From an uncultured Verrucomicrobiae bacterium (GTDB lineage: Bacteria > Verrucomicrobiota > Verrucomicrobiia > Limisphaerales > Palsa-1400): a stretch of 64,000 nt of DNA. The stretch spans positions 1,600,001-1,664,000 of the forward strand of contig CAVXRD010000001.1 in assembly GCA_963764165.1 (NCBI GenBank). The letters run 5' to 3'. Both the position numbers and the translations under genes were made by a program. Below are positions 38,348 to 57,974 of the stretch, one piece after another (within the stretch, counting starts at the first letter, position 1; each line of letters starts with the position of its first letter). The notes beneath the pieces are model-generated. The model did no database searches and was not told the DNA's origin. It saw only the letters and a list, made by a program, of their open reading frames with translations.

Positions 38348-40261
<1,914 letters not shown>

Positions 40262-40272
40262 GCGAAGCGACC

Positions 40273-41046
40273 ATGAATCTTACATTGAAAGTCTGGCGGC
40301 AGAAAGACGGCGCCAGCGAAGGCCGCCTCGTCACTTACCAGGCGCCCAACGTCTCGCCCGACATGTCGTTCCTCGAAATGCTGGACGTGCTCAACGAGGA
40401 TTTGATGGCGAAGGGCGAAGACCCGATTGCGTTCGACTCTGATTGCCGCGAAGGCATTTGCGGAACGTGCTCGATGGTCATCAACGGCTATGCCCACGGC
40501 GGCCAGCCGGGCACGACCGTCTGTCAACTGCACATGCGCAAATTCCGGGACGGCGACACCATCGTGATCGAGCCGTGGCGCGCCAAGGCATTCCCGATCC
40601 TGCGCGATTTGATCACGGATCGCAGCGCTTTTGACCGCATCATTCAGGCGGGCGGTTTCGTCTCGGTCAACACAGGTGGCGCGCCCGACGCCAACGCGAT
40701 TCCCATTCCGAAAACGGATGCCGACGTCGCGATGGACGCGGCCCAATGCATCGGCTGTGGCGCATGCGTCGCCGCCTGCAAGAACGCCTCGGCGATGCTT
40801 TTCGTCTCCGCCAAAGTTTCGCATCTGGCGATGCTGCCGCAAGGCCAGACCGAGCGCGAACGCCGCGTGTTGAAGATGGTCAAAGTCATGGATGAATCGG
40901 GCTTCGGCAATTGCACCGTGACTGGTTCCTGCGAAGCCGTCTGCCCGAAGGAAATCAGCCTTGATTTCATTGCCAAGATGAACCGCGAATATGGCAAGGC
41001 CATTTTGGAGAATAATGTTCCCAGAGCGAGCAAAGGCGGGGATTAA
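40273..41046 (+). CDS. sdhB: Succinate dehydrogenase iron-sulfur subunit
   Basis: [17 protein letters not shown]...C, CT.TGSC...CPK. Confidence 0.95.
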
Positions 41047-45979: not shown

Positions 45980-47368
45980 ATGACGACAAAAAATAGTTCC
46001 AATGGCAATTCAGCCCAAACCGGATTCAGCCGCCGTCATTTTTTGCGCGGGCTCGGCGCGGCCATTGCCCTGCCCGCTTTCAGTTCACTCGTGCCGCCGT
46101 CACTGGCGGCCGCGACCAGCGCCAAGCTCGCCGTCACGCCGACGGGCGCGCCGCTGCGCACCGCGTTTCTCTATTTCCCAAACGGCGCCATTCCCGCCGC
46201 ATGGTGGCCGGCCAAGGAAGGCACGGATTTCCAGCTTAGCAAAACCCTCCAGCCGCTGGCCGACCTGCGCCAGCACCTGCAAGTCGTAGGCGGCCTTGAC
46301 GATCACAGCGCGGATGGGCGCGAGGACGGCGGGGGCGACCACGCCCGGGCCAACGGAACGTTCCTCACCGGCGTCCGCTTGAAAAAGAGCGCGACAGATA
46401 TTCGCGCGGGCATTTCCATCGACCAGGTTTTCGCACGGCAAATCGGGCATTTGACGCGCTTTAGCTCGCTGGAATTGACGTGCGAAAGCGAACGCCCCAG
46501 CGGCGCTTGCGATACCGGTTATTCCTGCGCCTATCAATACAATCTTTCCTGGAGTTCGCCCACCACGCCGATGGCGGCGGAATCGAATCCGCGCCTCGTG
46601 TTCGAGCGCCTCTTCGGCGCCGGCCCGCCCGGCCAGCGCGCGGAAAGCTTGCGCCGCCGCCGGCTGGAGCAGCGCTCGATCCTGGATTTCGTGATGCAGG
46701 ACGCCAAGGCGATGGAGCGCCGCCTCAATTACAACGACCAGGCCAAATTGGACCAATACTTGACAGGTGTGCGGGAATTGGAAGCGCGCATCCACCAGGC
46801 CGAAAAACTCGGCGATCCAAAAGACCCGATGGTGCCGACGCCCACGGCCATCCCGGCCAGTTACGCCGAGCACATGGACCTTTTATTTGACATCTTGACG
46901 CTTGCCTTCCAGACCGATTCCACCCGCATTGCAACGATGGCGCTGGCGCACGACGGCAGCAACCGCTCGTTTTCCGAGATTGGGATTCCCGAGGGCCACC
47001 ATGATCTTTCGCATCATTTTGAAAACGCGGAGAAAATCAAGAAAGTTTCCGACATCGATCTGTGGTATGTGCAGCAATTCGGCAAGTTCCTGCGCAAGCT
47101 CGACGCGGTCAAGGACACGGACGGCAAATCGCTTTTGCACAACTCCATGATCGTCTACGGCAGCGGCAACGCCGATGGCAACCGCCATTCGCACACGAAT
47201 CTTCCGCTGATCCTGGCAGGCGCGGGCGGCGGGACACTGACGCCAGGACGCTATGTCAAGCATTCGTCCGTTCCCATGTCTAATATGTTCCTGAGCGTCG
47301 GCGATCGTTTGGGGCTGTCAGACATTCCGCGCTTTGGAGAGTCCACCGGGAGATTGTCAAATGTATAG
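45980..47368 (+). CDS. DUF1552 domain protein (Tat-exported)
   Basis: SRRHFLRGLG, Y.PNG, GGDH, YSCAY..N.SW, FQTD.TR, HH.LSHH, H.H.NLP. Confidence 0.9.
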   Translation: MTTKNSSNGNSAQTGFSRRHFLRGLGAAIALPAFSSLVPPSLAAATSAKLAVTPTGAPLRTAFLYFPNGAIPAAWWPAKEGTDFQLSKTLQPLADLRQHLQVVGGLDDHSADGREDGGGDHARANGTFLTGVRLKKSATDIRAGISIDQVFARQIGHLTRFSSLELTCESERPSGACDTGYSCAYQYNLSWSSPTTPMAAESNPRLVFERLFGAGPPGQRAESLRRRRLEQRSILDFVMQDAKAMERRLNYNDQAKLDQYLTGVRELEARIHQAEKLGDPKDPMVPTPTAIPASYAEHMDLLFDILTLAFQTDSTRIATMALAHDGSNRSFSEIGIPEGHHDLSHHFENAEKIKKVSDIDLWYVQQFGKFLRKLDAVKDTDGKSLLHNSMIVYGSGNADGNRHSHTNLPLILAGAGGGTLTPGRYVKHSSVPMSNMFLSVGDRLGLSDIPRFGESTGRLSNV

Positions 47369-48233
47369 TTTCTTGCGGAAGGCGGCCGGAGTTGCCGCTT
47401 GCTTCGCTGCCGCCGCGGCGTTGAGCGCCATGGCGGCTGAGCCGTTTGTCCTGCCACTTTGGGAAAACGGCCCGCCTGGATTCGAAAAATACCGCAACGA
47501 AGTGGAAACCACCAACGGAGGCTCGGTCGCAAACGTCCACAATCCGTCCATCACTGTTTATTTGCCGCCGAAGGAAAAAGCCAACGGCGCAGGCGTGCTG
47601 ATTTTTCCGGGAGGCGGATTCCGCCAGATCGGTGTCAAGGGCGAAGGCGTCGAACCGGCGCATTATTGGAACGATCTTGGCGTGGCGGCGTTCATTTGCA
47701 AATACCGCCTGCCGCGCGAAACCAATTCGCCCTATTCCCTTGACATCCACCCGCGCCAGGACGGCCAGCGCGCGATGCGCGTCGTCCGCAGCCACGCCGC
47801 CGAATGGGGCATCGATCCGAAACGCATCGGCATTGAAGGCTTTTCCGCCGGCGGAGAAATGACCTCTTACCTAGCCTTCAGCCCCTACGCTGGCGACCCG
47901 AACGCCGCCGACCCGGTTGACCGCCTCGATTGTTCCGTCGCGTTTCAAATTGTTATTTATCCCGGCCCGCTTGGCATCCCGGAAAAGGTTGCCTCCGACG
48001 CCCCGCCCGCCTTCTTCATCATCGCGAACGACGACACAGGCCACATGGAAGGATTGCTTTCGATGGTCGCTAAATACCACGCCGCCAACCGCCCAATGGA
48101 AGTTCACATCTACGAGCGAGGCGGCCACGGTTTTGGAATGGGGACACACTCCAAATTCAAATCCATCCGCACATGGAATGACCGCCTGACCGACTGGCTG
48201 AACGACAACAAGATTTTGCAGGGCGCGCCGTGA
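47361..48233 (+). CDS. Secreted alpha/beta hydrolase (carbohydrate esterase-like)
   Basis: PGGGF, YRLP, GFSAGG nucleophile elbow, GGHGFG. Confidence 0.85.
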   Translation: MYSFLRKAAGVAACFAAAAALSAMAAEPFVLPLWENGPPGFEKYRNEVETTNGGSVANVHNPSITVYLPPKEKANGAGVLIFPGGGFRQIGVKGEGVEPAHYWNDLGVAAFICKYRLPRETNSPYSLDIHPRQDGQRAMRVVRSHAAEWGIDPKRIGIEGFSAGGEMTSYLAFSPYAGDPNAADPVDRLDCSVAFQIVIYPGPLGIPEKVASDAPPAFFIIANDDTGHMEGLLSMVAKYHAANRPMEVHIYERGGHGFGMGTHSKFKSIRTWNDRLTDWLNDNKILQGAP

Positions 48234-48275: not shown

Positions 48276-49361
48276 TCATGGGGGATTTTTCTTTCCGGCA
48301 GAAGGCTTCAAGTGTTTGAGCTTTTTTATCGCTGCATCAAAATCCTTTTCCACCAAACTTGGCTTCGCGTCTTCGAGCGCGCGGAATTTTGAGAATTCGA
48401 ACTGGGCTTTTTCCATCGCTGCGTCGTGAGAGATTTTTCCCGCATGCGTCAATATATTGCGATCGGACAGGCGCAAAAAATCGTCAAGCTTCGCAGTCCA
48501 GGCCCGCATGGTCATAGGGTTGCGATTCATCGCCTGCAGCTCGGCAAATTCCAGATAGGCGGTCACAATCCGGTTCAGCGCTGTCAATTCCTCCTCCGTC
48601 AAATAGTTTTTGGCAATCGACGTGTCCTCCTTGCGCACGATGCCGCCGGGGCGGGTCGTCTTCAGTCCCATAAAGGGTTTGCTCGCGTCGGCCCGCGCGT
48701 GAATCACTTCAGCCGCTGTGTGCCCATGAGCAGCCCAATGCATTTTATTTTGGACAATCGCAAAAAACGTTTGTGAAACCACCTGGCTCGGATCGTAGTC
48801 GGTGCTCGTGGCATAGATATCCAGAACCTTTCGCCAGAAGACTTTTTCCGACGAACGAATGTCGCGAATGCGCGCCAGCAGTTCCTCGAAATAATCCGCG
48901 TCGCCGCCTTCTTTCAGGCGCATGTCGTCCATCGCGAATCCTTTCACGATGTATTCGCGCAGCCTCTGGGTGGCCCAGATGCGGAACTGCGTGCCACGCG
49001 GAGAACGGACGCGATACCCGACGGCAATAATTGCGTCCAGATTGTAATGTTTCAGGTTCCGTCGAATCGACCGCGCACCCTCCATTCGAACTTGTAAGTA
49101 ATCCTTACAAGTTGCCTGTTCGCCCAGTTCACCTTCGCTGTAAATGGCTTGCAGATGGAGGGTTATGTTCTGCGGCGTAGTCTCGAAAAGCTCTCCCATC
49201 TGAGCTTGGGTAAGCCAAGCTGTGTGGCCGTCCAGGCGGACATGAAGGCGGGTCTGCGCGTCCTCAGTTTGAAAAAGGATAACCTCGCCACCCGGTTTTG
49301 GCTCTCCGCAGGCGGCTACTCGCAAGCCCGCTGAATAGGATTCCGACCCTGACTTGCTCAT
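48276..49361 (-). CDS. rhuM: RhuM-family protein
   Basis: WLTQ.QM.ELF....NI..HL..IY, YNLD.II.VGYRV.S.RGTQFR.WAT..L.EY..KGF.MDD.RLK, IRDIRSSEK, VQNK.H.A.HG.TAAE, AKNYL. Confidence 0.92.
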   Translation of the reverse strand: MSKSGSESYSAGLRVAACGEPKPGGEVILFQTEDAQTRLHVRLDGHTAWLTQAQMGELFETTPQNITLHLQAIYSEGELGEQATCKDYLQVRMEGARSIRRNLKHYNLDAIIAVGYRVRSPRGTQFRIWATQRLREYIVKGFAMDDMRLKEGGDADYFEELLARIRDIRSSEKVFWRKVLDIYATSTDYDPSQVVSQTFFAIVQNKMHWAAHGHTAAEVIHARADASKPFMGLKTTRPGGIVRKEDTSIAKNYLTEEELTALNRIVTAYLEFAELQAMNRNPMTMRAWTAKLDDFLRLSDRNILTHAGKISHDAAMEKAQFEFSKFRALEDAKPSLVEKDFDAAIKKLKHLKPSAGKKNPP

Positions 49362-49437
49362 GCGTCGACCAAGAGCATGACCATTCGCACGAAGCGAAGC
49401 CAGCGAAAACACAATCTCGCCGCGCATTATCGTGGAC

Positions 49438-49468
49438 TCGAACTTGTAAGCAATCCTTACAAGTTGCC
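49438..49468. promoter_or_regulatory. Palindrome upstream of rhuM, duplicated inside its CDS (49086-49116)
   Basis: TCGAACTTGTAAG[C/T]AATCCTTACAAGTTGCC, 30/31 identical between copies; core 10-5-10 [22 protein letters not shown]. Confidence 0.8.
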
Positions 49469-49478
49469 GCCCTGCAAT

Positions 49479-51683
49479 CTAAAACAGCACGGTAAGTTCG
49501 CGGGCGGCGGCCTCGTTCAGGAAATGAATCCACATCAGCCCTTCGTCCGCGCTGTAATTGACAGATTCGACATTCGCCCCGGCCAGGGTCACGGACTTCG
49601 CGGCGCGCGGCGCTCGAATCAAAACTACCGCGGCCGTCCCGCCGACTCCTTCGACCAACGCCGAAATTTTCTCCGCGCTTTGGGTTTGCGGCACCGCGCG
49701 GCAGCCCGCCGCCAGCAGCGAGCGCCCGGCAATATCGGGCGCATCGACATCGAGCAATACAAATCGATGCCCCGGCGATAAGACAACTTCCCTCTGCACT
49801 TTCAATTCGGAGTCAAATAAATTGATGAATCGCCCTTTCAGCACGCGCGGTTCACCGGCGATGGATTCATCAAGGCCCGCCGCGACAATGTAGGGGCCCC
49901 GCTTGAGGTAAAGGCAATTGGTCTCGCTCCAAGCGAAATGCGGAGCGATGGAGCTTGCCAGATCACTCGCGCCGCGGCGGACGGCGTCCACCACAGCTTC
50001 GTCACCGCGCTCTTTGCGCGAAAGCACCGCCGGATTGTGGTGCAGCCAGATCAACTCGCCCTGCCCAACTTTCACCGGGCCTGTTTCATTTTGCGCGACA
50101 CCCAATTGTTCGAAGAGATGCTGGCGCGGCGTCGCGTAATGCATGCCGTTCGTGTTCCACCATTCGCGGACGCGATCGAACGGGTCGCCGTCGTCATCGC
50201 AGAAAACGAGCAAGCCGCCGCGCTTCACCCAATCGGCCAAGCCCGCGTGAACTTCCGGCGTCAACGGTTTCATCCCATGATAGCTCATCAGCAGGCAATG
50301 AACGCCGTCGAGGTAGCCGGGAATTTGCGCGTCCTCGAGTTGGATGGGTTGCACTGGCAATCCGCGTTTGAGGAACGGCAGCGCAAGCCCATACACACCG
50401 CCTAGGCGCGAATCGCTCGGCGAAGGATCGCCGCGCTCGAACATCAGCGAATCTCCGATGATCACGCCTAGTCCGGTTGCGCCGCAATTCCATGAGACGT
50501 TCGTTTGCGCCATGTCGTCGAGGGCATTCCAGATCACTTGCAGCTCCGTCGCGTAGGCGGGGGGCATTTTTTTGCGGTCCTCCCGCGGGCCGTTGCGTGG
50601 GTAGCGCGTATTGAAAATGCGTTCGGGCCACGGCGCGATTTCGTAGCGTGAGACTTCCGGCTGGAAGAGCGATGCCGTCAGCGTGCATTCCCAATTCTGC
50701 TGGTAATCGTTCCAATCATGGTTCCCATTGTCCTCGATGGGATCGTTCAGATACCAAACCGTGCGTCCTGTGGAACGGACAAGATTCTGCATCGCGCCAT
50801 ATTCGAGAAACGCCGTGTCAAAGGTGCGCTCGCGCTCCTGCCCATGGTAGAAATTCGGCGTGCGCGACGTGCCCGTCCAGACCTGCGCAATGTAACCGTC
50901 GCAGCCGTTGAGGCGCGCCAGGCTCGACTCCGGACTGACGATTCCCCAGTCAGCGTAATTGATCAAACTGTGGGTCGGAACGTAGCAGCGGACGTGCGCG
51001 CCCTTCTCTTTGTTGAACGCCAAAATGCTGTCAAACACTTGCTGCAGCGCGCGGCGATACAAATAGTATTTCAGATTGGAGGCGCGCCATTGCGCGTCCA
51101 CCGACGAATGCGGCGCCTGCCACGGCTCGCCATAGTAGCTTTGCCACTCGCGTTTGAAGCCATCGGAATAACCGTTTTGCACCCAGAATTCTGGTTCCTC
51201 CAGATGCACGGCCTCGACGCCGGCGTCCAAAGCCTTGCGCACTCCGGCGCTTAGGTAATTGCCATAGTTTGTGCTCGGGCTCATATAGTATGCGCCGCCG
51301 CCATGGCCGTGCGCACGGCCGCTGCGATCCGTCTGCCGTTCGTCGTTGTGATCCTTCCCGTCGAATCCCCCAAAGAGGAAATTAGTGTAATTGCCCCACG
51401 CCACGCCGGTCATCAAATGAACCCGATAGCCGCGGTCGCGCCACGACTTCACACGCTCTTCAACGTTCGCGTCGAACCCATAGACGATGGCGACATCCGC
51501 GCGCAAATCGCAGTCGGGCTTCCATGCGACATGTGTTTGGAAACACGTCCGCTCCATGCTTTGTTGCGGGTCGGCAAAGGGCAGATTGGTTTGGGCGACC
51601 AGCGGACGAGTCAGCCCGCAAATGCCGAGCAGCGATGCGAAAACGGCAATGGCCTTAACTCGCGAAAACCTCGTCTCATTCAT
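49479..51683 (-). CDS. Secreted hypothetical protein, possibly glycoside-hydrolase-like
   Basis: Signal peptide; aromatic-rich sequence with HLEEPEF and LNDPIED; C-terminal L.DWV..GG.L.F like GH42-type trimerisation domains. Function not established. Confidence 0.7.
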   Translation of the reverse strand: MNETRFSRVKAIAVFASLLGICGLTRPLVAQTNLPFADPQQSMERTCFQTHVAWKPDCDLRADVAIVYGFDANVEERVKSWRDRGYRVHLMTGVAWGNYTNFLFGGFDGKDHNDERQTDRSGRAHGHGGGAYYMSPSTNYGNYLSAGVRKALDAGVEAVHLEEPEFWVQNGYSDGFKREWQSYYGEPWQAPHSSVDAQWRASNLKYYLYRRALQQVFDSILAFNKEKGAHVRCYVPTHSLINYADWGIVSPESSLARLNGCDGYIAQVWTGTSRTPNFYHGQERERTFDTAFLEYGAMQNLVRSTGRTVWYLNDPIEDNGNHDWNDYQQNWECTLTASLFQPEVSRYEIAPWPERIFNTRYPRNGPREDRKKMPPAYATELQVIWNALDDMAQTNVSWNCGATGLGVIIGDSLMFERGDPSPSDSRLGGVYGLALPFLKRGLPVQPIQLEDAQIPGYLDGVHCLLMSYHGMKPLTPEVHAGLADWVKRGGLLVFCDDDGDPFDRVREWWNTNGMHYATPRQHLFEQLGVAQNETGPVKVGQGELIWLHHNPAVLSRKERGDEAVVDAVRRGASDLASSIAPHFAWSETNCLYLKRGPYIVAAGLDESIAGEPRVLKGRFINLFDSELKVQREVVLSPGHRFVLLDVDAPDIAGRSLLAAGCRAVPQTQSAEKISALVEGVGGTAAVVLIRAPRAAKSVTLAGANVESVNYSADEGLMWIHFLNEAAARELTVLF

Positions 51684-51693
51684 GAGACTGATT

Positions 51694-53139
51694 TCAATGC
51701 GCCTGTGGCGCGGAGTCAACCTTGTTCATTTGCTTTGGAGGGGTGCGACGCGATTGGAGAAACGCGACCAGATCATCCATGTCGCCGGGGGCTAGGTTGG
51801 CGGCGAACGCAGGCATGTTGTTGCCTCCATTGGAAATTCGGATAATCATTTGGTCGCGCGTCAACCGATCTGCGACGTTGCTTAAGTCCGGCCCGCGACG
51901 CCCGCCGCTGCCGTCGATCCAATGGCAATTGAGGCAGCCTTTGTCATGAAATTTTTGCGCCCCAGCGAACACGGGGCCGCCCGTTGCCCCGACCACGGAT
52001 TCCGGAAGCGGCTTCGCCTCGAAGTTCGGCGACCATGGAGATTTCGCGCCCTCCACCCAAAGGGTCGAAATCATTATGACCACCGCAACGACCATCGCCA
52101 CCGCCCACGGCCGACGGCGAAAACTCCGCTCGCCCTTGTTTGCGATGAACGGCATAACGATCAGTATGAACCCTGCAATCAGCGGCGCAAACACCATGAA
52201 GTAACGCTCCGAGCCATGCGGCAAAAGCGCCAGCACTCCGAAGTACCACAGCAAATACCAATCCGGCCGCGGATCAGCCCCGACGATGCTCGGGTCCGGT
52301 GGCTTGCCAAGTTCGGGCGCGCCAACGATCATCGCCAGCAGCGCCATTCCCAAAATCATCCCCACGCAGAAAACGACATCGCGCCAGGCGGCATCCGGCC
52401 AGAATGGTTTGCCGGTTTTCTCCATCAATTCCTTATATTCCTTGCGATAGGTTTTTGGATTGACGGGCTTGCCTGGAGTCGGCGGCTCAGAAATCCCGTG
52501 ACGCAACACCAGCATCAGATGCAAACCGACAAAAGCAAAAATGCACGCGGGCATGATGAAGACATGCACAACGAAAAATCGTGTCAAGGTCGCCCCACCC
52601 ACTGTATCGCCGCCGAGTGTGAAATGAGCCAGCCACGGGCCAATCACGGGAACGCGGCCGGTTTGTTCCGCCGCGACCACCACCGACCAGATCGCGGTTT
52701 GGTCCCAGCGCAAAAGCTGCCCGGTAAATCCCATCACCAGCGTAAACCCGAGCAGCAGCACGCCCGTCGCCCAGGTCAGCTCGCGCGGAAATTTGTAGGA
52801 GCCGAACAAAAACACCTGCGCCATGTGCAGCCCCACCATCAGCACCATGGCCGAGGCGCCGTAGTAATGGAGGCTTCGCAGGAAATTTCCAAACGGCGCT
52901 TCGTTGGTGATGAATTGGAGCGTTTGATACGCGTCGCCCGCAGAGGGAATATAAGCAAACGCCAACGCTACTCCGCTGACAACCTGAATGACGAAGGCGC
53001 AGAACGTCGCGCTGCCGAAGACATACCACCAGCGCGCATCGTGCGGCACAAGGTGCTTGGCCTGCTCGCCGATCATCGCCCCGAGGCCTGTGCGATCCTC
53101 CAGCCAATCGCGGATTTTTATGAAAACGCGGCGAATCAT
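51694..53139 (-). CDS. qcrB: Cytochrome b (b6+subunit IV-like) fused to a c-type cytochrome
   Basis: W.Y.FGS, RSLHY.GAS.MV...LH, YK.PRE..W..G, TLTRFF..H, RPDWY (PEWY variant), CLNCH. Confidence 0.92.
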   Translation of the reverse strand: MIRRVFIKIRDWLEDRTGLGAMIGEQAKHLVPHDARWWYVFGSATFCAFVIQVVSGVALAFAYIPSAGDAYQTLQFITNEAPFGNFLRSLHYYGASAMVLMVGLHMAQVFLFGSYKFPRELTWATGVLLLGFTLVMGFTGQLLRWDQTAIWSVVVAAEQTGRVPVIGPWLAHFTLGGDTVGGATLTRFFVVHVFIMPACIFAFVGLHLMLVLRHGISEPPTPGKPVNPKTYRKEYKELMEKTGKPFWPDAAWRDVVFCVGMILGMALLAMIVGAPELGKPPDPSIVGADPRPDWYLLWYFGVLALLPHGSERYFMVFAPLIAGFILIVMPFIANKGERSFRRRPWAVAMVVAVVIMISTLWVEGAKSPWSPNFEAKPLPESVVGATGGPVFAGAQKFHDKGCLNCHWIDGSGGRRGPDLSNVADRLTRDQMIIRISNGGNNMPAFAANLAPGDMDDLVAFLQSRRTPPKQMNKVDSAPQAH

Positions 53140-53684
53140 GTGGTGGAAATGGGGATAGGCGCGGTGAGAATTTGCACCTGCCCTTTATAAATCCGAACTT
53201 GGTAGCGCGGCAGCGGCGCTGGCGGAGGACCGGCTGCAACCGCGCCGTCCTCGTAATAAACGCCGCCATGGCACGGGCACATGAATAATTTCGCTCCTTC
53301 CAGCCAGCGCACCGGGCAGCCCAGATGCGTGCAGTTCAGCGAGAACGCGATGAACGAATCCTCCCCCACCTTCCGCACATAGGCCGCCGTCCTTGCCGTC
53401 ACGCCAGCCCACGGCAATGGCGATGAATCTTCAAATGCGACCTGCTTCGTTTCTCCTAATTTGAACGATTTGGGATCTCCGACTGACCGCCATATCTGTT
53501 TGTCACGCTCGAAGAGCGGCGCGAAAATAAAACCCACCATCGGCAACGCCAATACCGCCGCGCCGAAACTGCCCAGCAAAATGCTGAAACGCTCGAGAAA
53601 TTTTCGACGCGACACTTCGGCAGGCGAGGCCGCGCACGCGCAGGGCGCGGGATTTGGATTATTTTCCGTGTTTGGATCTTTCAT
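53136..53684 (-). CDS. qcrA: Rieske iron-sulfur subunit
   Basis: SRRKFL Tat motif; CTHLGC and CPCHGG. Confidence 0.92.
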   Translation of the reverse strand: MKDPNTENNPNPAPCACAASPAEVSRRKFLERFSILLGSFGAAVLALPMVGFIFAPLFERDKQIWRSVGDPKSFKLGETKQVAFEDSSPLPWAGVTARTAAYVRKVGEDSFIAFSLNCTHLGCPVRWLEGAKLFMCPCHGGVYYEDGAVAAGPPPAPLPRYQVRIYKGQVQILTAPIPISTT

Positions 53685-53901
53685 GACGAATCTCCCGAAT
53701 CCAACCAATCATCGACACCGCGAACAACAACAAACCAATGCCCGAAATAATCAGCGAGCTCACCAAGCCCCAGACGATGAACATGATCGCCAGCGACAGC
53801 GCCGCGGGCCATATCGAAGGCTCTGGCAAGTCGTCCGGTTGCGGAGCCGTCCAGCCGGGCGGCAAATTCACTTGAGGCGGAGTCGAGTGTTCAGTGTCCA
53901 T
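53659..53901 (-). CDS. Small 2-TM protein (cytochrome c oxidase subunit 4-like)
   Basis: LPEPSIWP followed by two hydrophobic helices and GW..E; AGAGGAG upstream; overlaps both neighbours. Confidence 0.7.
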   Translation of the reverse strand: MDTEHSTPPQVNLPPGWTAPQPDDLPEPSIWPAALSLAIMFIVWGLVSSLIISGIGLLLFAVSMIGWIREIRHERSKHGK

Positions 53902-54814
53902 GCGCTTCTCCTCTGTTGGTTTGGTTTAATTGCGAATCTCGGCAGGGCGAGGCTCCTGCCGAGCCATCTTCGCGGGTGTGGCTCGGCAGGAGCCTCGCCC
54001 TGCCGCGCCTGTCATTTTGGCGCACCCTACTCTTACCCGCAATATCGGCACTCCCTTCCGCATACCAGCGGTTTAGCATGCCCAGGATCGCTGTAAAATA
54101 GACGATGCACGCGGGCACCCACATCAACAAGCCGCCCAATTGCTGGTCGCGCGAAGGCGTGAGGGCCCATTCGTGTTGAATCAGCGGCAGCACACCGAGG
54201 CGATCCTGCGGATGCAAATAAATTGAGCACACTTCGACCGGCGAAAACGTAATGATAATCCCAAGCAACGTGCAGCCCAGGCAGGCGGTGACCAAATAGG
54301 CAATGCCCGTCATTGGCGAAAGGCGCTGTTCTTCCCACGGCCCGATGATGGGCCACCAAAATGCGAGACCCATTCCCATGAGCGAAGCATACTGCACGCG
54401 ATGAATCCACGGGGTGGCCACTGCGGCGTTGCACAAGGTCGGCGCATGCCAGAGCCACATGCCGCCCAAGCCAAGAATCCAGCAAACGATTGGCAGACGC
54501 GCGGTCCAATCGAGAAAGCGAAACTTTGCCGGACGCGCGCCGACCGGAATGCTCAACAAGATGAGCGGCGGAATGATCAGCAGCAGAAGAAGATGCTGCA
54601 GCATGTGCGCGCTGAAGAGATAGCCGTCCGCCAGTGTGTCCACCGGCGAGGCCAGCGTCAGAAAGAACAGCGCCAGCCCGGCCGCCAGCCATCCAGTCCG
54701 GCTGTCAAAACGAAATTTTCGACGAACCCCGTAAGCCACGGCTCCTGCGGCACAAAAGCCAACCACCCACGCGTTCCATTCCCAAGCCGATTTAAAAAAT
54801 TGCGCGGTTGTCAT
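53891..54814 (-). CDS. ctaG: caa3-type cytochrome c oxidase assembly factor CtaG, with a REP-derived tail segment
   Basis: LFSAHM.QHLLL...PPL, W.WH.P, FWW.., DQQLGGLLMWVP. Confidence 0.88.
   Translation of the reverse strand: MTTAQFFKSAWEWNAWVVGFCAAGAVAYGVRRKFRFDSRTGWLAAGLALFFLTLASPVDTLADGYLFSAHMLQHLLLLLIIPPLILLSIPVGARPAKFRFLDWTARLPIVCWILGLGGMWLWHAPTLCNAAVATPWIHRVQYASLMGMGLAFWWPIIGPWEEQRLSPMTGIAYLVTACLGCTLLGIIITFSPVEVCSIYLHPQDRLGVLPLIQHEWALTPSRDQQLGGLLMWVPACIVYFTAILGMLNRWYAEGSADIAGKSRVRQNDRRGRARLLPSHTREDGSAGASPCRDSQLNQTNRGEAHGH
53940..54005. repeat. 66-bp REP-like hairpin (perfect 27-bp IR) inside ctaG
   Basis: CGGCAGGGCGAGGCTCCTGCCGAGCCA, 12-nt loop, TGGCTCGGCAGGAGCCTCGCCCTGCCG; homologous to 61966-62035. 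Confidence 0.85.
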
Positions 54815-57042
54815 AAAAGCGTCTTCAAATAAACCACCGAGAAAACCGCGATCCACACCACATCCACAAAATGCCAGTAAAGCCCGACGCTCTTCACGGC
54901 TTCAAATCGTCCAGTTCGGAAATCCCCCGCAAAACCAAGCCACGTCACCACCGCCAGCATTGCCAGGCCAACGCAAACGTGAATGCCGTGGAAGCCTGTC
55001 AAAGTGAAAAATGTGGTGGCAAACAAGTTTGAGTTGATGACGACTCCGTCGTGGAACAGCCGCGCGTACTCGAACCCCTGGCCAATGATGAAAATCACTC
55101 CCAGCAAAATTGTCACGAGCATCATCTTCACAAAACCTTTTTGGTTGCCTGCGAAAAGTTTTCGTTCCGCCAGCCAAAACGTGACGCTGCTCGCAAGAAG
55201 ACAAATTGTGAAAATTCCAGACTTGGCGATTTCCAGGGATTTCGCGGCGCTCGGTCCGGTCATTTCATGGCCGTTGTAATAGAGATACGCCAGAATCAAC
55301 ATCACGAAAAATGAGGCCTCGGAAATTAGAAAAGTCCCCATGCCGATTTCGTTTTTCTCCCACACTCTCGCTTTTTTCGCACTCGGCGCGCCATCTTCGG
55401 GATCGCGCCGAGCCGGGTTCGCCAAATCCCACAAGGGACGGCGGCTGCGCACTGGCGGCACGCGGTCGAAATTATGCTCCGGCGGCGGCGAAGTGGTGGC
55501 CCATTCCAACGTCCACGCCCGCCATGGATTGTCCCCCGCGGGTTCGCCGTGGCGCAGGCTCACCGCAATGTTCCAAATCAAAATGAGCACGCTGAAGCCG
55601 AGGACAAACGCGCCGACGCTGGAAACGACGTTCAAAATCCCCCATCCTGGCAAATCTGGATAGGTGTAAATGCGCCGCGTCATTCCCATCAAGCCGAGAA
55701 TGTGCTGCACGAAAAACGCGCCATTGAAACCGATGAGCGCCGTCCAAAAATTCAGCTTTCCGATTTTTTCGGAAAGCATTCTCCCGGTCATTTTCGGAAA
55801 CCAATAATATATGCCGCCGAGAATGGCGAAGAACGTTCCGCCAAAAAGCACGTAATGAAAATGCGCGACCAAATAGTAAGTGTCTGTGACCTGCCAATCA
55901 ATGGGCACGACGGCAAACGTGATTCCGCTCAAGCCGCCAACGGTAAATTGAATGAGAAAGGCCACCGCAAACATCATTGACGTTGTCAAACGAATCGCGC
56001 CGCCCCACATGGTCGCGCTCCAGGCAAAGATTTTAATCCCGGTCGGCACTGCAATCAGCATGCTGCTCGCCGCGAAAAACAAATCCATCGGATGCCCCAT
56101 GCCGACCGCGAACATGTGATGGGCCCAAACGCCAAAACTCAGCAACGCGATGGCCACCGTCGAACCAGCCACAAACTCGTAGCCAAAAATTGGCCGGCGC
56201 GAAAAGACCGGGACGATTTCCGAAATGATTCCGAAAGCCGGCAGCGCAAGGATGTAAACTTCGGGATGGCCAAAGGCCCAAAAGAAATGCTGCCATAATA
56301 TCACTGACCCGCCGTGCGCCGCCGTGAAGAAATGCGCTCCGAGCTGGCGGTCGATCAGCAGCATGATGATGTCCGCGTTCAAGGCGGGCATGGCCAGGAT
56401 GATCAGGAACGAATTGATCAAAATCATCCACACGAACAACGGCAGGCGCTTGATTGTCAAACCCGGCGGACGCAGCGTGAAAATGGTGGCGACCAGATTT
56501 ACGGAGGCGGCGACCGACCCGATTCCCAACACCAGCAGCGCAAGCACCCAAAAATCCACTCCCTGCGTCGACGCAAACGGCGTCTCGCTCAGCGGCGCGT
56601 AGCTGAACCATCCCACCGCGGGCGCGCCGCCGACCAGCAGGCTGAAGTGCAGCAGAAATCCGCCGCACGGCAGCAGCCAATAACCGAGCGCGTTGAGCCG
56701 CGGAAACGCCATGTCGCGCGCGCCGATCATCAGCGGCACCAAATAATTGGCCAGCCCGATGAGCGCCGGCATGACGACCAGAAAAATCATGGTCGTGCCG
56801 TGCATCGTGAAGAGCTGATTGAAGGCGTCTGGAGAGAGAAAATGATTATTAGGGCGGATCAATTGAATCCGAAGCAGCAACGCTTCCGCGCCGCCGACAA
56901 GCAGGAAAAACATCGCCGTCAACAAATACAATATCCCCACGCGCTTGTGATCGACCGTCGCCACCCATCCGAACAAGCCGTGGTGGAGGCTGGCTTTCTC
57001 CGCGGCTTCGGCGTTTTCCTGCGCTGGGGCCATCGCGCTCAT
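54811..57042 (-). CDS. ctaD: Cytochrome c oxidase subunit I fused to subunit III
   Basis: VDHKRVG, TMHGT.M, GHPEVY (A1-type), VWAHH, AHFHY; then TGFHG.HV and YWHFVD of subunit III. Confidence 0.93.
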   Translation of the reverse strand: MSAMAPAQENAEAAEKASLHHGLFGWVATVDHKRVGILYLLTAMFFLLVGGAEALLLRIQLIRPNNHFLSPDAFNQLFTMHGTTMIFLVVMPALIGLANYLVPLMIGARDMAFPRLNALGYWLLPCGGFLLHFSLLVGGAPAVGWFSYAPLSETPFASTQGVDFWVLALLVLGIGSVAASVNLVATIFTLRPPGLTIKRLPLFVWMILINSFLIILAMPALNADIIMLLIDRQLGAHFFTAAHGGSVILWQHFFWAFGHPEVYILALPAFGIISEIVPVFSRRPIFGYEFVAGSTVAIALLSFGVWAHHMFAVGMGHPMDLFFAASSMLIAVPTGIKIFAWSATMWGGAIRLTTSMMFAVAFLIQFTVGGLSGITFAVVPIDWQVTDTYYLVAHFHYVLFGGTFFAILGGIYYWFPKMTGRMLSEKIGKLNFWTALIGFNGAFFVQHILGLMGMTRRIYTYPDLPGWGILNVVSSVGAFVLGFSVLILIWNIAVSLRHGEPAGDNPWRAWTLEWATTSPPPEHNFDRVPPVRSRRPLWDLANPARRDPEDGAPSAKKARVWEKNEIGMGTFLISEASFFVMLILAYLYYNGHEMTGPSAAKSLEIAKSGIFTICLLASSVTFWLAERKLFAGNQKGFVKMMLVTILLGVIFIIGQGFEYARLFHDGVVINSNLFATTFFTLTGFHGIHVCVGLAMLAVVTWLGFAGDFRTGRFEAVKSVGLYWHFVDVVWIAVFSVVYLKTLL

Positions 57043-57974
57043 TTGAGAGTGGCGAGGTATTGCGCCAGCGCGTTGGCATCGGCGTCCGTCAGATTCAAAT
57101 TCGGCATGAGGCACGCAGGCTTGATGGATTGCGGATCCTTCAGCCAGCGATACAGATTTGTTTCCGTGATTGGCAAAATTCCAGCACCCAAATTTTTCCG
57201 CCCCGCAACGTGCGTCAAATCAGGCGCTGCCGTTGATATCCCTGAGACACCGCGAATCGTGTGGCAATTGATGCATGTTTTGTCCTGGAACGTTTTCAAA
57301 CCTTGTTCCAAAACTCCCGACGACGACGCCTGCGCCGGGGCCGATTGCGCGCGCAGCCATTCGTTGAATTTATCGGGAGGATCGGCCACGACGAGAAAGC
57401 GCATCCACGAATGCTGCGCGCCGCAATACTCGGCACAGGTGCCGTCGTAAGTCCCCGGCGACTGCGCGGAAAGCCAGAGATAATTGGTGAGGCCGGGAAC
57501 GACGTCGATTTTTCCGCCCAGTCGCGCCACCCAAAAATCGTGAATTACGTCGGCCGATTCCAATTGCACCAGCCAGTTGCTTCCAACGGGAATGTGGATT
57601 TCATTGGCCACGACTGCCGAAGAATCTGGATAGCGCGCCTCCCACCACCACTGATGGCTCACGACAATCAGATCCGGTTTGTCTTTTGCGGGCGGATCGG
57701 ACAAACGCATTCCCCGGGCTGTCAAGACGAACAAACCGGCGACGATCAGGGTCGGGACAGCCGTCCAGGCGATTTCCAAATTGCGATTGCCAAAATACGA
57801 GGGAGGATCCTCCGCGCCTTCACGATGGCGAAAGCGAATCAAACAAACAGCGATCAACCCCGCCACAATCGCCAGAATCACCGCGCAAACCGCCAAGGTC
57901 CCAATAAAAACATCCGATATCGCCGCCGCCTGCGCCGACGCAGGGTCGAACATCGGACTGATGGCCTTCAGCAT
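57039..57974 (-). CDS. ctaC: Cytochrome c oxidase subunit II with C-terminal cytochrome c (caa3 type)
   Basis: LEIAWT..P, QWWW, DVIH, CuA motif CAEYCGAQHSWM, CINCH. Confidence 0.93.
   Translation of the reverse strand: MLKAISPMFDPASAQAAAISDVFIGTLAVCAVILAIVAGLIAVCLIRFRHREGAEDPPSYFGNRNLEIAWTAVPTLIVAGLFVLTARGMRLSDPPAKDKPDLIVVSHQWWWEARYPDSSAVVANEIHIPVGSNWLVQLESADVIHDFWVARLGGKIDVVPGLTNYLWLSAQSPGTYDGTCAEYCGAQHSWMRFLVVADPPDKFNEWLRAQSAPAQASSSGVLEQGLKTFQDKTCINCHTIRGVSGISTAAPDLTHVAGRKNLGAGILPITETNLYRWLKDPQSIKPACLMPNLNLTDADANALAQYLATLK

Follow-up and report, generated by a model that had tools for sequence, protein, structure and literature searches.

What does a perfect palindrome do inside the coding sequence of rhuM, and why does a nearly identical copy lie just upstream of that gene? 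Both questions are raised by the 64,000-nucleotide stretch of DNA analyzed here (the window), which derives from an uncultured Verrucomicrobiae bacterium and holds the following features at this locus.

47334..48233, plus strand: alpha/beta hydrolase gene, downstream of rhuM and convergent with it (context only)
48276..49361, minus strand: rhuM, 361 aa, with PF13310 at residues 83 to 328 and a match to PADLOC PDC-S05
49047..49217, minus strand: swappable specificity cassette, approximately codons 49 to 105 (helix-turn-helix, palindrome, and wing)
49089..49113, no strand assigned: core of the in-gene palindrome, codons 83 to 91, in the first strand of the predicted wing; putative binding site
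49134..49181, minus strand: predicted recognition helix, residues 63 to 76 (codons 61 to 76), in which P63, Q64, T67, and L68 covary with arm bases
49438..49478, minus strand: upstream solo copy of the palindrome (core 49441-49465), a likely relic of approximately 41 nt that abuts the stop codon of the upstream gene
49479..51719, minus strand: upstream neighbor, 746 aa, an open reading frame with no Pfam family in the Pfam search

The rhuM product matched the Pfam family Virulence_RhuM (PF13310) with an E value of 3e-112 and 374.5 bits, against a cutoff of 33.7, and PADLOC PDC-S05 over residues 25 to 351 (E value of 3.7e-141), while profile searches of PHROGs and NCBIfam returned no family match. 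Translation probably begins at 49361, and a second in-frame ATG is present at 49427; the closest relative (P0001) has its N terminus in common with the window RhuM from MSKSG onward and differs before it. The gene is located outside any defense island. Its upstream neighbor (49479-51719) looks secreted and is 57 to 76% identical to the versions found in relatives. RhuM-type domains are present in 190 of 401 genomes of Verrucomicrobiota.

The two copies reported in the preliminary description were recovered at 49086-49116 and 49438-49468, 352 bp apart and identical at 30 of 31 positions. Both form a perfect 10-5-10 inverted repeat, and the lone difference is one loop base. The in-gene copy begins with the last base of codon 83 and extends through codon 91 (ATCKDYLQV), and the upstream copy lies 80 to 104 nt before the rhuM start. 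More copies in the same genome, a possibility raised earlier, did not emerge: the 7.0-Mb scan yielded 54 perfect 10-5-10 repeats in total and no third copy at up to 6 mismatches. One palindrome considered and rejected, at C2:2269062, sits after the stop codon of a gene and is unrelated to RhuM.

Loci were pooled from scans of genomes, viruses, and metagenomes and from the genomes of Verrucomicrobiota, giving 231 tblastn hits, 226 of which could be anchored on the helix. At least 8 of 10 arm positions pair in 219 of these 226 RhuM hits and all 10 pair in 142, with 7 failing, and the palindrome occupies the identical codon offset in 218 of the anchored hits. Removal of the 7 nonpairing hits and of 7 duplicates left a working set of 212 loci. 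Wobble positions pair with wobble positions in this register, and all four such pairs are intact in 173 of the 212 loci, compared with 2.5 expected from the codon usage of each gene. The best 10-5-10 repeat elsewhere in the same genes, used as a control, never reached 10 of 10 (8 in 117 genes and 9 in 13). The palindrome had been proposed to persist through compensatory changes while the peptide varies, and the 133 distinct cores of the 212 loci display this behavior, since their arms vary (64 distinct left arms) and pair. Two further RhuM N domains in the genome of the window each encode their own, different palindrome at the same codons.

Among the 133 distinct cores, mismatches read on the coding strand comprise 22 G-T, 24 A-C, 10 C-C, and 8 T-T. 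They concentrate at arm positions 4 and 5, positions 1 to 3 and 7 to 10 being nearly perfect, and the spacer is A/T rich. The pattern expected of a hairpin, in which G-T is tolerated on one strand and destabilizing mismatches are avoided, was not found. Because the mismatches lack strand bias and include C-C and T-T, they suggest a double-stranded DNA site for a dimer rather than a hairpin, which disfavors the earlier proposal of a hairpin or recombination site.

Covariation between residues and bases supports the idea that protein and palindrome are matched to each other at the DNA level. If the codons of the palindrome itself are set aside, the peak of mutual information between residues and arm bases falls at residues 61 to 68, where residues 63 and 67 covary with bases 5 and 6, residue 64 with base 7, and residues 65 and 68 with bases 8 to 10. 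Glutamate at residue 68 corresponds to CGG in 29 of 29 cases and lysine or arginine to GCA or TCC in 45 of 46; at residue 67, the rules N-AT, S-GT, and T-TG each repeat in at least three inner classes. Pair 7/19, which is synonymous on both sides, is C-G in 46 of 46 rows with Q, R, or K at residue 64 and T-A in 26 of 26 rows with P, S, or A, such that all 72 rows in which the peptide permits this test follow the helix. Four helix residues gave the six arm bases correctly in 164 of 174 rows in a leave-one-out analysis, and held-out prediction of the six bases succeeded at 21 of the 24 predictable loci out of 28 new loci. Arginine and lysine usually pair with G in DNA recognition, and glutamate and aspartate with C; the observed residue-base pairings agree with this chemistry.

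Independent-pair tests gave the expected direction in 13/13, 14/14, 10/11, 13/14, and 9/9 pairs, and the synonymous-only version had 5 supported pairs (P = 0.06). These tree-based tests show kept linkage, not independent coevolution or separate origins, because the helix and the palindrome are approximately 45 to 65 nt apart and move as one cassette. Part of the nonsynonymous covariation could also be internal to the protein, as the palindrome encodes wing residues too. Diverged genes that belong to one helix class have a silent identity of 0.92 in the arms and of 0.40 in the flanking cassette (933 nonindependent pairs, picked for diverged flanks), a contrast that appears to speak against simple shared descent. 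We consider it very probable that RhuM binds its cognate site.

It could be argued instead that the palindrome is old and is kept perfect by template-switch mutation, and that the helix covaries with it through protein packing against the encoded strand, with no function at the DNA level. It is true that the palindrome codes for residues of the domain to which the helix belongs. This account is opposed, however, by the synonymous pair that follows the helix in every testable row, by an arm length and register that are fixed across phyla, and by gene-free phage copies (see below) that match the real repertoire only, and its chance of being correct is very slight.

An AlphaFold2 model of RhuM (mean pLDDT of 89.8) contains helices at residues 52 to 58 and 63 to 76 and a long beta-hairpin, the wing, at residues 85 to 106; in this predicted winged-helix domain, the palindrome would encode the first strand of the wing. 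The predicted homodimer scored 0.77, against 0.00 for the best control; 20 of the 30 solved pairs reached the mark set for a dimer, as did 1 of 23 single chains. The dimer runs agree in at least 90% of their contacts, with pLDDT of at least 80, and the recognition helix and wing fall outside the listed dimer interface in the model. Among solved structures, those closest in fold are winged-helix proteins that bind DNA (Z scores of 5.6 to 7.5), and the fold search with the whole model gave no match at a Foldseek E value of 0.001 or a Z score of 8. The DNA-binding domain of pSK1 Par aligned with a Z score of 7.5 and an rmsd of 1.4 over 51 residues, and DdrC of Deinococcus aligned across both domains (Z score of 7.5 and rmsd of 7.1 over 206 residues; Foldseek E value of 1.5e-3, probability 1.0), at 6 to 16% identity to RhuM for the two proteins. 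DdrC is reported to be a homodimer that binds DNA breaks (PMC11347143). With their middling scores, DdrC and pSK1 Par provide a lead to the fold, and possibly to the sensing of broken DNA, and not a family assignment.

The helix and palindrome are exchanged jointly, in a cassette of approximately 170 bp. A FastTree phylogeny of the backbone (the rest of the protein), covering 172 of the 212 rows with 40 omitted as too short, contains 92 class changes, and 74 of 107 pairs that are at least 90% identical outside the cassette differ in class. Orthologous loci that share their upstream DNA carry five helix/site types. The pairwise comparison of cassettes covered 12 pairs, among them L175 versus L179, with 83 to 90% identity outside codons 49 to 105 and 27 to 61% inside.

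Exchange of this kind could mean that the palindrome is a self-spreading mobile hairpin or recombination site that itself drives the swapping. The 92 class changes would fit such a site, as would relics trimmed to the palindrome, butt-joined units in phages, and two RhuM proteins (P0032 and P0033) in which two different palindrome-encoded peptides stand in tandem and in frame. The cassette borders, however, fall mostly outside the palindrome, approximately 100 nt before and 40 nt after it, and the mismatches are those of a site without strand bias, C-C and T-T included. Further, no recombinase-like fold appeared among the listed structural matches, and a mobile site would leave the residue-base code unexplained. 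We therefore regard it as improbable.

The preliminary description had interpreted the two copies as a module in which the upstream copy acts as an operator at the promoter and conversion or selection maintains its match to the coding copy. The identical arms and the distance to the start would suit this interpretation, and RhuM would be expected to bind the upstream copy under the reading that we favor as well. A matching second copy is, however, not a general property of rhuM loci. The window has the only cognate upstream copy among the 203 loci with at least 600 nt of upstream sequence, so the conservation across the family that a promoter operator would predict is absent, and 28 further loci have no cognate upstream copy. 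Cognate half-sites in 205 upstream regions are not enriched (7 seen versus 6.1 by permutation). One other locus (L223) does have a cognate copy, but downstream, 68 nt past the stop codon and 906 nt after the in-gene site, with perfect arms extended to approximately 19 bp. Immediately upstream of rhuM, six other loci have a RhuM-type solo that in no case belongs to the class of the adjacent gene, and these solos are relics of other classes. At L180 and L025, rhuM genes have plainly been deleted, with the start and palindrome retained.

The flanks of the two window copies had been described as unrelated, which holds with respect to the window's own gene and fails for the 5′ flank of the upstream copy, where 13 nt match sister rhuM alleles. 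With a 2-nt gap, this stretch scored 21 against the sister-allele coding flank (E-L-Q-x-A-A) and 5 against the window's own gene, and 9 of 1,500 random flanks scored as well; the 3′ flank has no match beyond 3 nt. The promoter proposed to overlap the upstream copy (TTGCTT-16-GATAAT) reaches a score of 8/12, and a consensus scan calls no promoter there. A same-class match upstream needs no conversion, since the window's class already accounts for 24 of the 212 loci, a frequency at which a chance match is plausible. The upstream copy is most probably what is left of an earlier or other rhuM allele of the same class; at most, it is a local second site that could be bound by RhuM. A matched two-copy module is consequently highly improbable. 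No RhuM-type palindrome follows the stop codon in 12 homologues of the 746-aa upstream neighbor from relatives, and a search of 40 relatives for the empty site found none with the two neighbors of rhuM adjacent and none with a RhuM-type palindrome after the upstream gene.

Copies of the palindrome in phages, which the preliminary description had missed, argue against a simple operator at the promoter. The exact arms of the window occur in at least 120 viral stretches; among the matches listed, 93 are distinct, of which 6 lie in rhuM and the remainder represent 60 independent non-rhuM contexts. The same virus search returned 0 hits for every one of four control palindromes, namely a rearranged version, two versions in which one pair had been altered, and one with altered outer bases. 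A second real class was found in 33 viral stretches, 18 of them without rhuM nearby. None of the 47 records with gene-free sites among the matches listed has a match to the RhuM N domain (positive controls, 2/2), in a set that consists mostly of viral fragments, with only 9 records reaching 90% completeness, and in which a single query could miss a remote phage-encoded reader. Of the 60 contexts among the matches listed, 13 have a site of a different RhuM class at most 100 bp away, compared with 0.1 for shuffled classes, and 331 kb from 11 phage records held 8 more repertoire sites, 7 of them within 50 bp of the first. Such mixed arrays have a spacing of 26 to 50 bp and include butt-joined units. 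Ea22/DUF551 phage genes contain the window-class site in frame, with a second-class site 41 bp on. In E. coli, the palindrome region within rhuM was matched in 76 of 5,426 genomes, and strain SMS-3-5 has the identical 25-mer inside a rhuM gene adjoining a type I restriction-modification (R-M) system.

Several other phage sequences were noted alongside these. In Ea22/DUF551 genes (L288, L292, L356, and L373), the codons for the NSPVTPDGW-type peptide form an 8/10 RhuM-class palindrome; a recombination endonuclease gene of phages (L325, L330, L337, H1, and H2) contains the site in frame, apparently at its CxxC motif; and a family of 115-aa phage open reading frames (L286 and relatives, 12 distinct sites) contains the site in the reading frame of rhuM. 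Palindromes of other designs neighbor rhuM genes or, in phages, RhuM sites (L422:19853-19945, L328, L314, and L015), and we take these to be similar to parts of DinD, KilA-N, and Bro-N genes.

From the conservation, covariation, cassette exchange, gene-free copies, and mixed arrays seen in the DNA, together with the predicted winged helix and homodimer, we favor, with a probability of roughly 0.6, a reading in which the RhuM dimer binds the palindrome of its own gene as an off switch or self tag and phage copies mimic that site to escape. The dimer would park on the in-gene palindrome through the predicted winged helix; site-bound RhuM would be inactive, with its anti-phage-type activity off, and the parked dimer may also limit its own transcription as a roadblock. 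Free RhuM would block phage growth, either after the site is destroyed with the host chromosome or on replicating foreign DNA that lacks the site, and phage-borne copies would soak up or disarm it. Every transferred rhuM copy would thus carry its antidote, each cassette swap would rekey lock and key jointly, and swapping may represent the host's countermove to phage mimicry. Inactivity of the site-bound form is the simplest joint reading because phages collect the sites: sites that targeted phages would be lost, and decoys would induce a pure autorepressor. T7, T5, and T4 are phages that degrade host DNA, and release of RhuM upon chromosome loss would fit protection against them.

Intragenic operators are known, such as lac O2 and the PurR box in purB, and the palindrome could be a plain autorepression operator of this sort, with the phage copies passively captured or retained for another use. 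The code, the dimer, and the evidence for a double-stranded site are all compatible with such an operator, and capture does happen, as is seen in host gene relics that keep the palindrome. Titration of a pure autorepressor, however, would yield more defense protein and no gain for phages, which nonetheless hold mixed arrays and in-frame copies in their own genes. We find autorepression on its own rather unlikely.

A protein of the PDC-S05 family with a RhuM domain, which is another member and not the window allele, cut the plating of T7 and T5 approximately 1,000-fold and protected E. coli against T7, T5, and T4, according to the available part of that report (10.1101/2024.09.26.614923). RhuM has also been proposed as a toxin alongside R-M and PrrC (PMC3710099) and found enriched beside invertible loci (PMC9881135), again as given in the passages available; a LexA site described near a rhuM/doc gene in the accessible text of another study (PMC3998124) is not relevant here. 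The RhuM passages available from three of these sources do not mention an internal palindrome, DNA-binding specificity, or phage-borne sites (PMC3710099, PMC9881135, 10.1101/2024.09.26.614923). Our literature search, which most subscription papers were beyond the reach of, found no description of the RhuM palindrome.

BstA of the Salmonella prophage BTP1 is, in the available passages of its report, a single-gene defense with an N-terminal helix-turn-helix-type domain, and aba is a short, partly coding DNA element in the bstA locus that forms cognate protein-element pairs and suppresses BstA, also in trans at high copy (PMC8585504). RhuM resembles this system as a single-gene defense-type protein that likewise has a predicted helix-turn-helix-type domain toward its N terminus, with an element in its own locus that is partly or wholly coding and with cognate pairing, seen for RhuM by covariation only. 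In contrast to the 25-bp palindrome at codons 83 to 91 of rhuM, aba is 63 bp long, spans the start of its gene, has terminal direct repeats of CCCGCC, and is not a palindrome, a word that its report never uses; it protects the carrier prophage, and those passages report neither a residue-base code nor mimicry by other phages (PMC8585504). Unlike aba, the RhuM site codes for the wing of the very domain that would read it, and it is also present in phages without the gene. Neither the BstA nor the KilA-N family was found for the window RhuM in Pfam, PHROGs, NCBIfam, or the best 25 PADLOC rows. In an aba-like alternative, the site would mark replicating DNA as self, which temperate phage carriers fit. 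In our reading, RhuM works like BstA/aba and does not fit the sequence definition of aba; it would be a variant form of DNA-based self-immunity.

RptR is reported to regulate a defense island and to bind a fixed 6-bp promoter site (PMC12255303). RhuM shares with lac O2, the PurR box, and RptR a palindromic site for a dimeric DNA-binding protein; unlike the RhuM site, theirs do not encode the DNA-binding domain of the reader and do not switch with it. In type I R-M systems, a specificity module of HsdS is swapped between otherwise similar genes. The swapped RhuM module differs in carrying its own target site, and neither an invertase nor inverted repeats are involved.

Tentatively, and with the odds somewhat against it, RhuM may represent a class of single-gene immunity of its own, in which the codons for the DNA-binding domain of the protein contain the antidote DNA, a four-residue-to-six-base code links the two, a 170-bp cassette rekeys them, and phages answer with decoys of DNA only, either as noncoding many-key arrays or in frame, for example, in lambdoid Ea22/DUF551 genes. 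RhuM has been labeled a virulence protein without a mechanism, and these findings make its binding and its distinction between self and phage directly testable. They also suggest a counterdefense made of DNA alone and a possible explanation for variable peptides in common phage genes. In addition, they provide a naturally occurring residue-to-base code, housed in a small winged-helix domain, and the unexplained aba phenomenon would gain a tractable parallel.

Remnants of other rhuM genes occur in the G000 genome. A truncated rhuM directly downstream of an insertion element, presumably IS630-like, ends right after its own TIRKFRIV-class palindrome (C2:1619675-1619699; L084:3463-3903, minus strand), and a lone C-terminal RhuM fragment without a palindrome (C2:2399980-2400135; L003) looks like a relic that lost its site. 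Elsewhere in the window, genes named from their translations only include those for succinate dehydrogenase/fumarate reductase at 38348-41046 and a cluster for cytochrome b, Rieske protein, and cytochrome c oxidase at 51694-57974.
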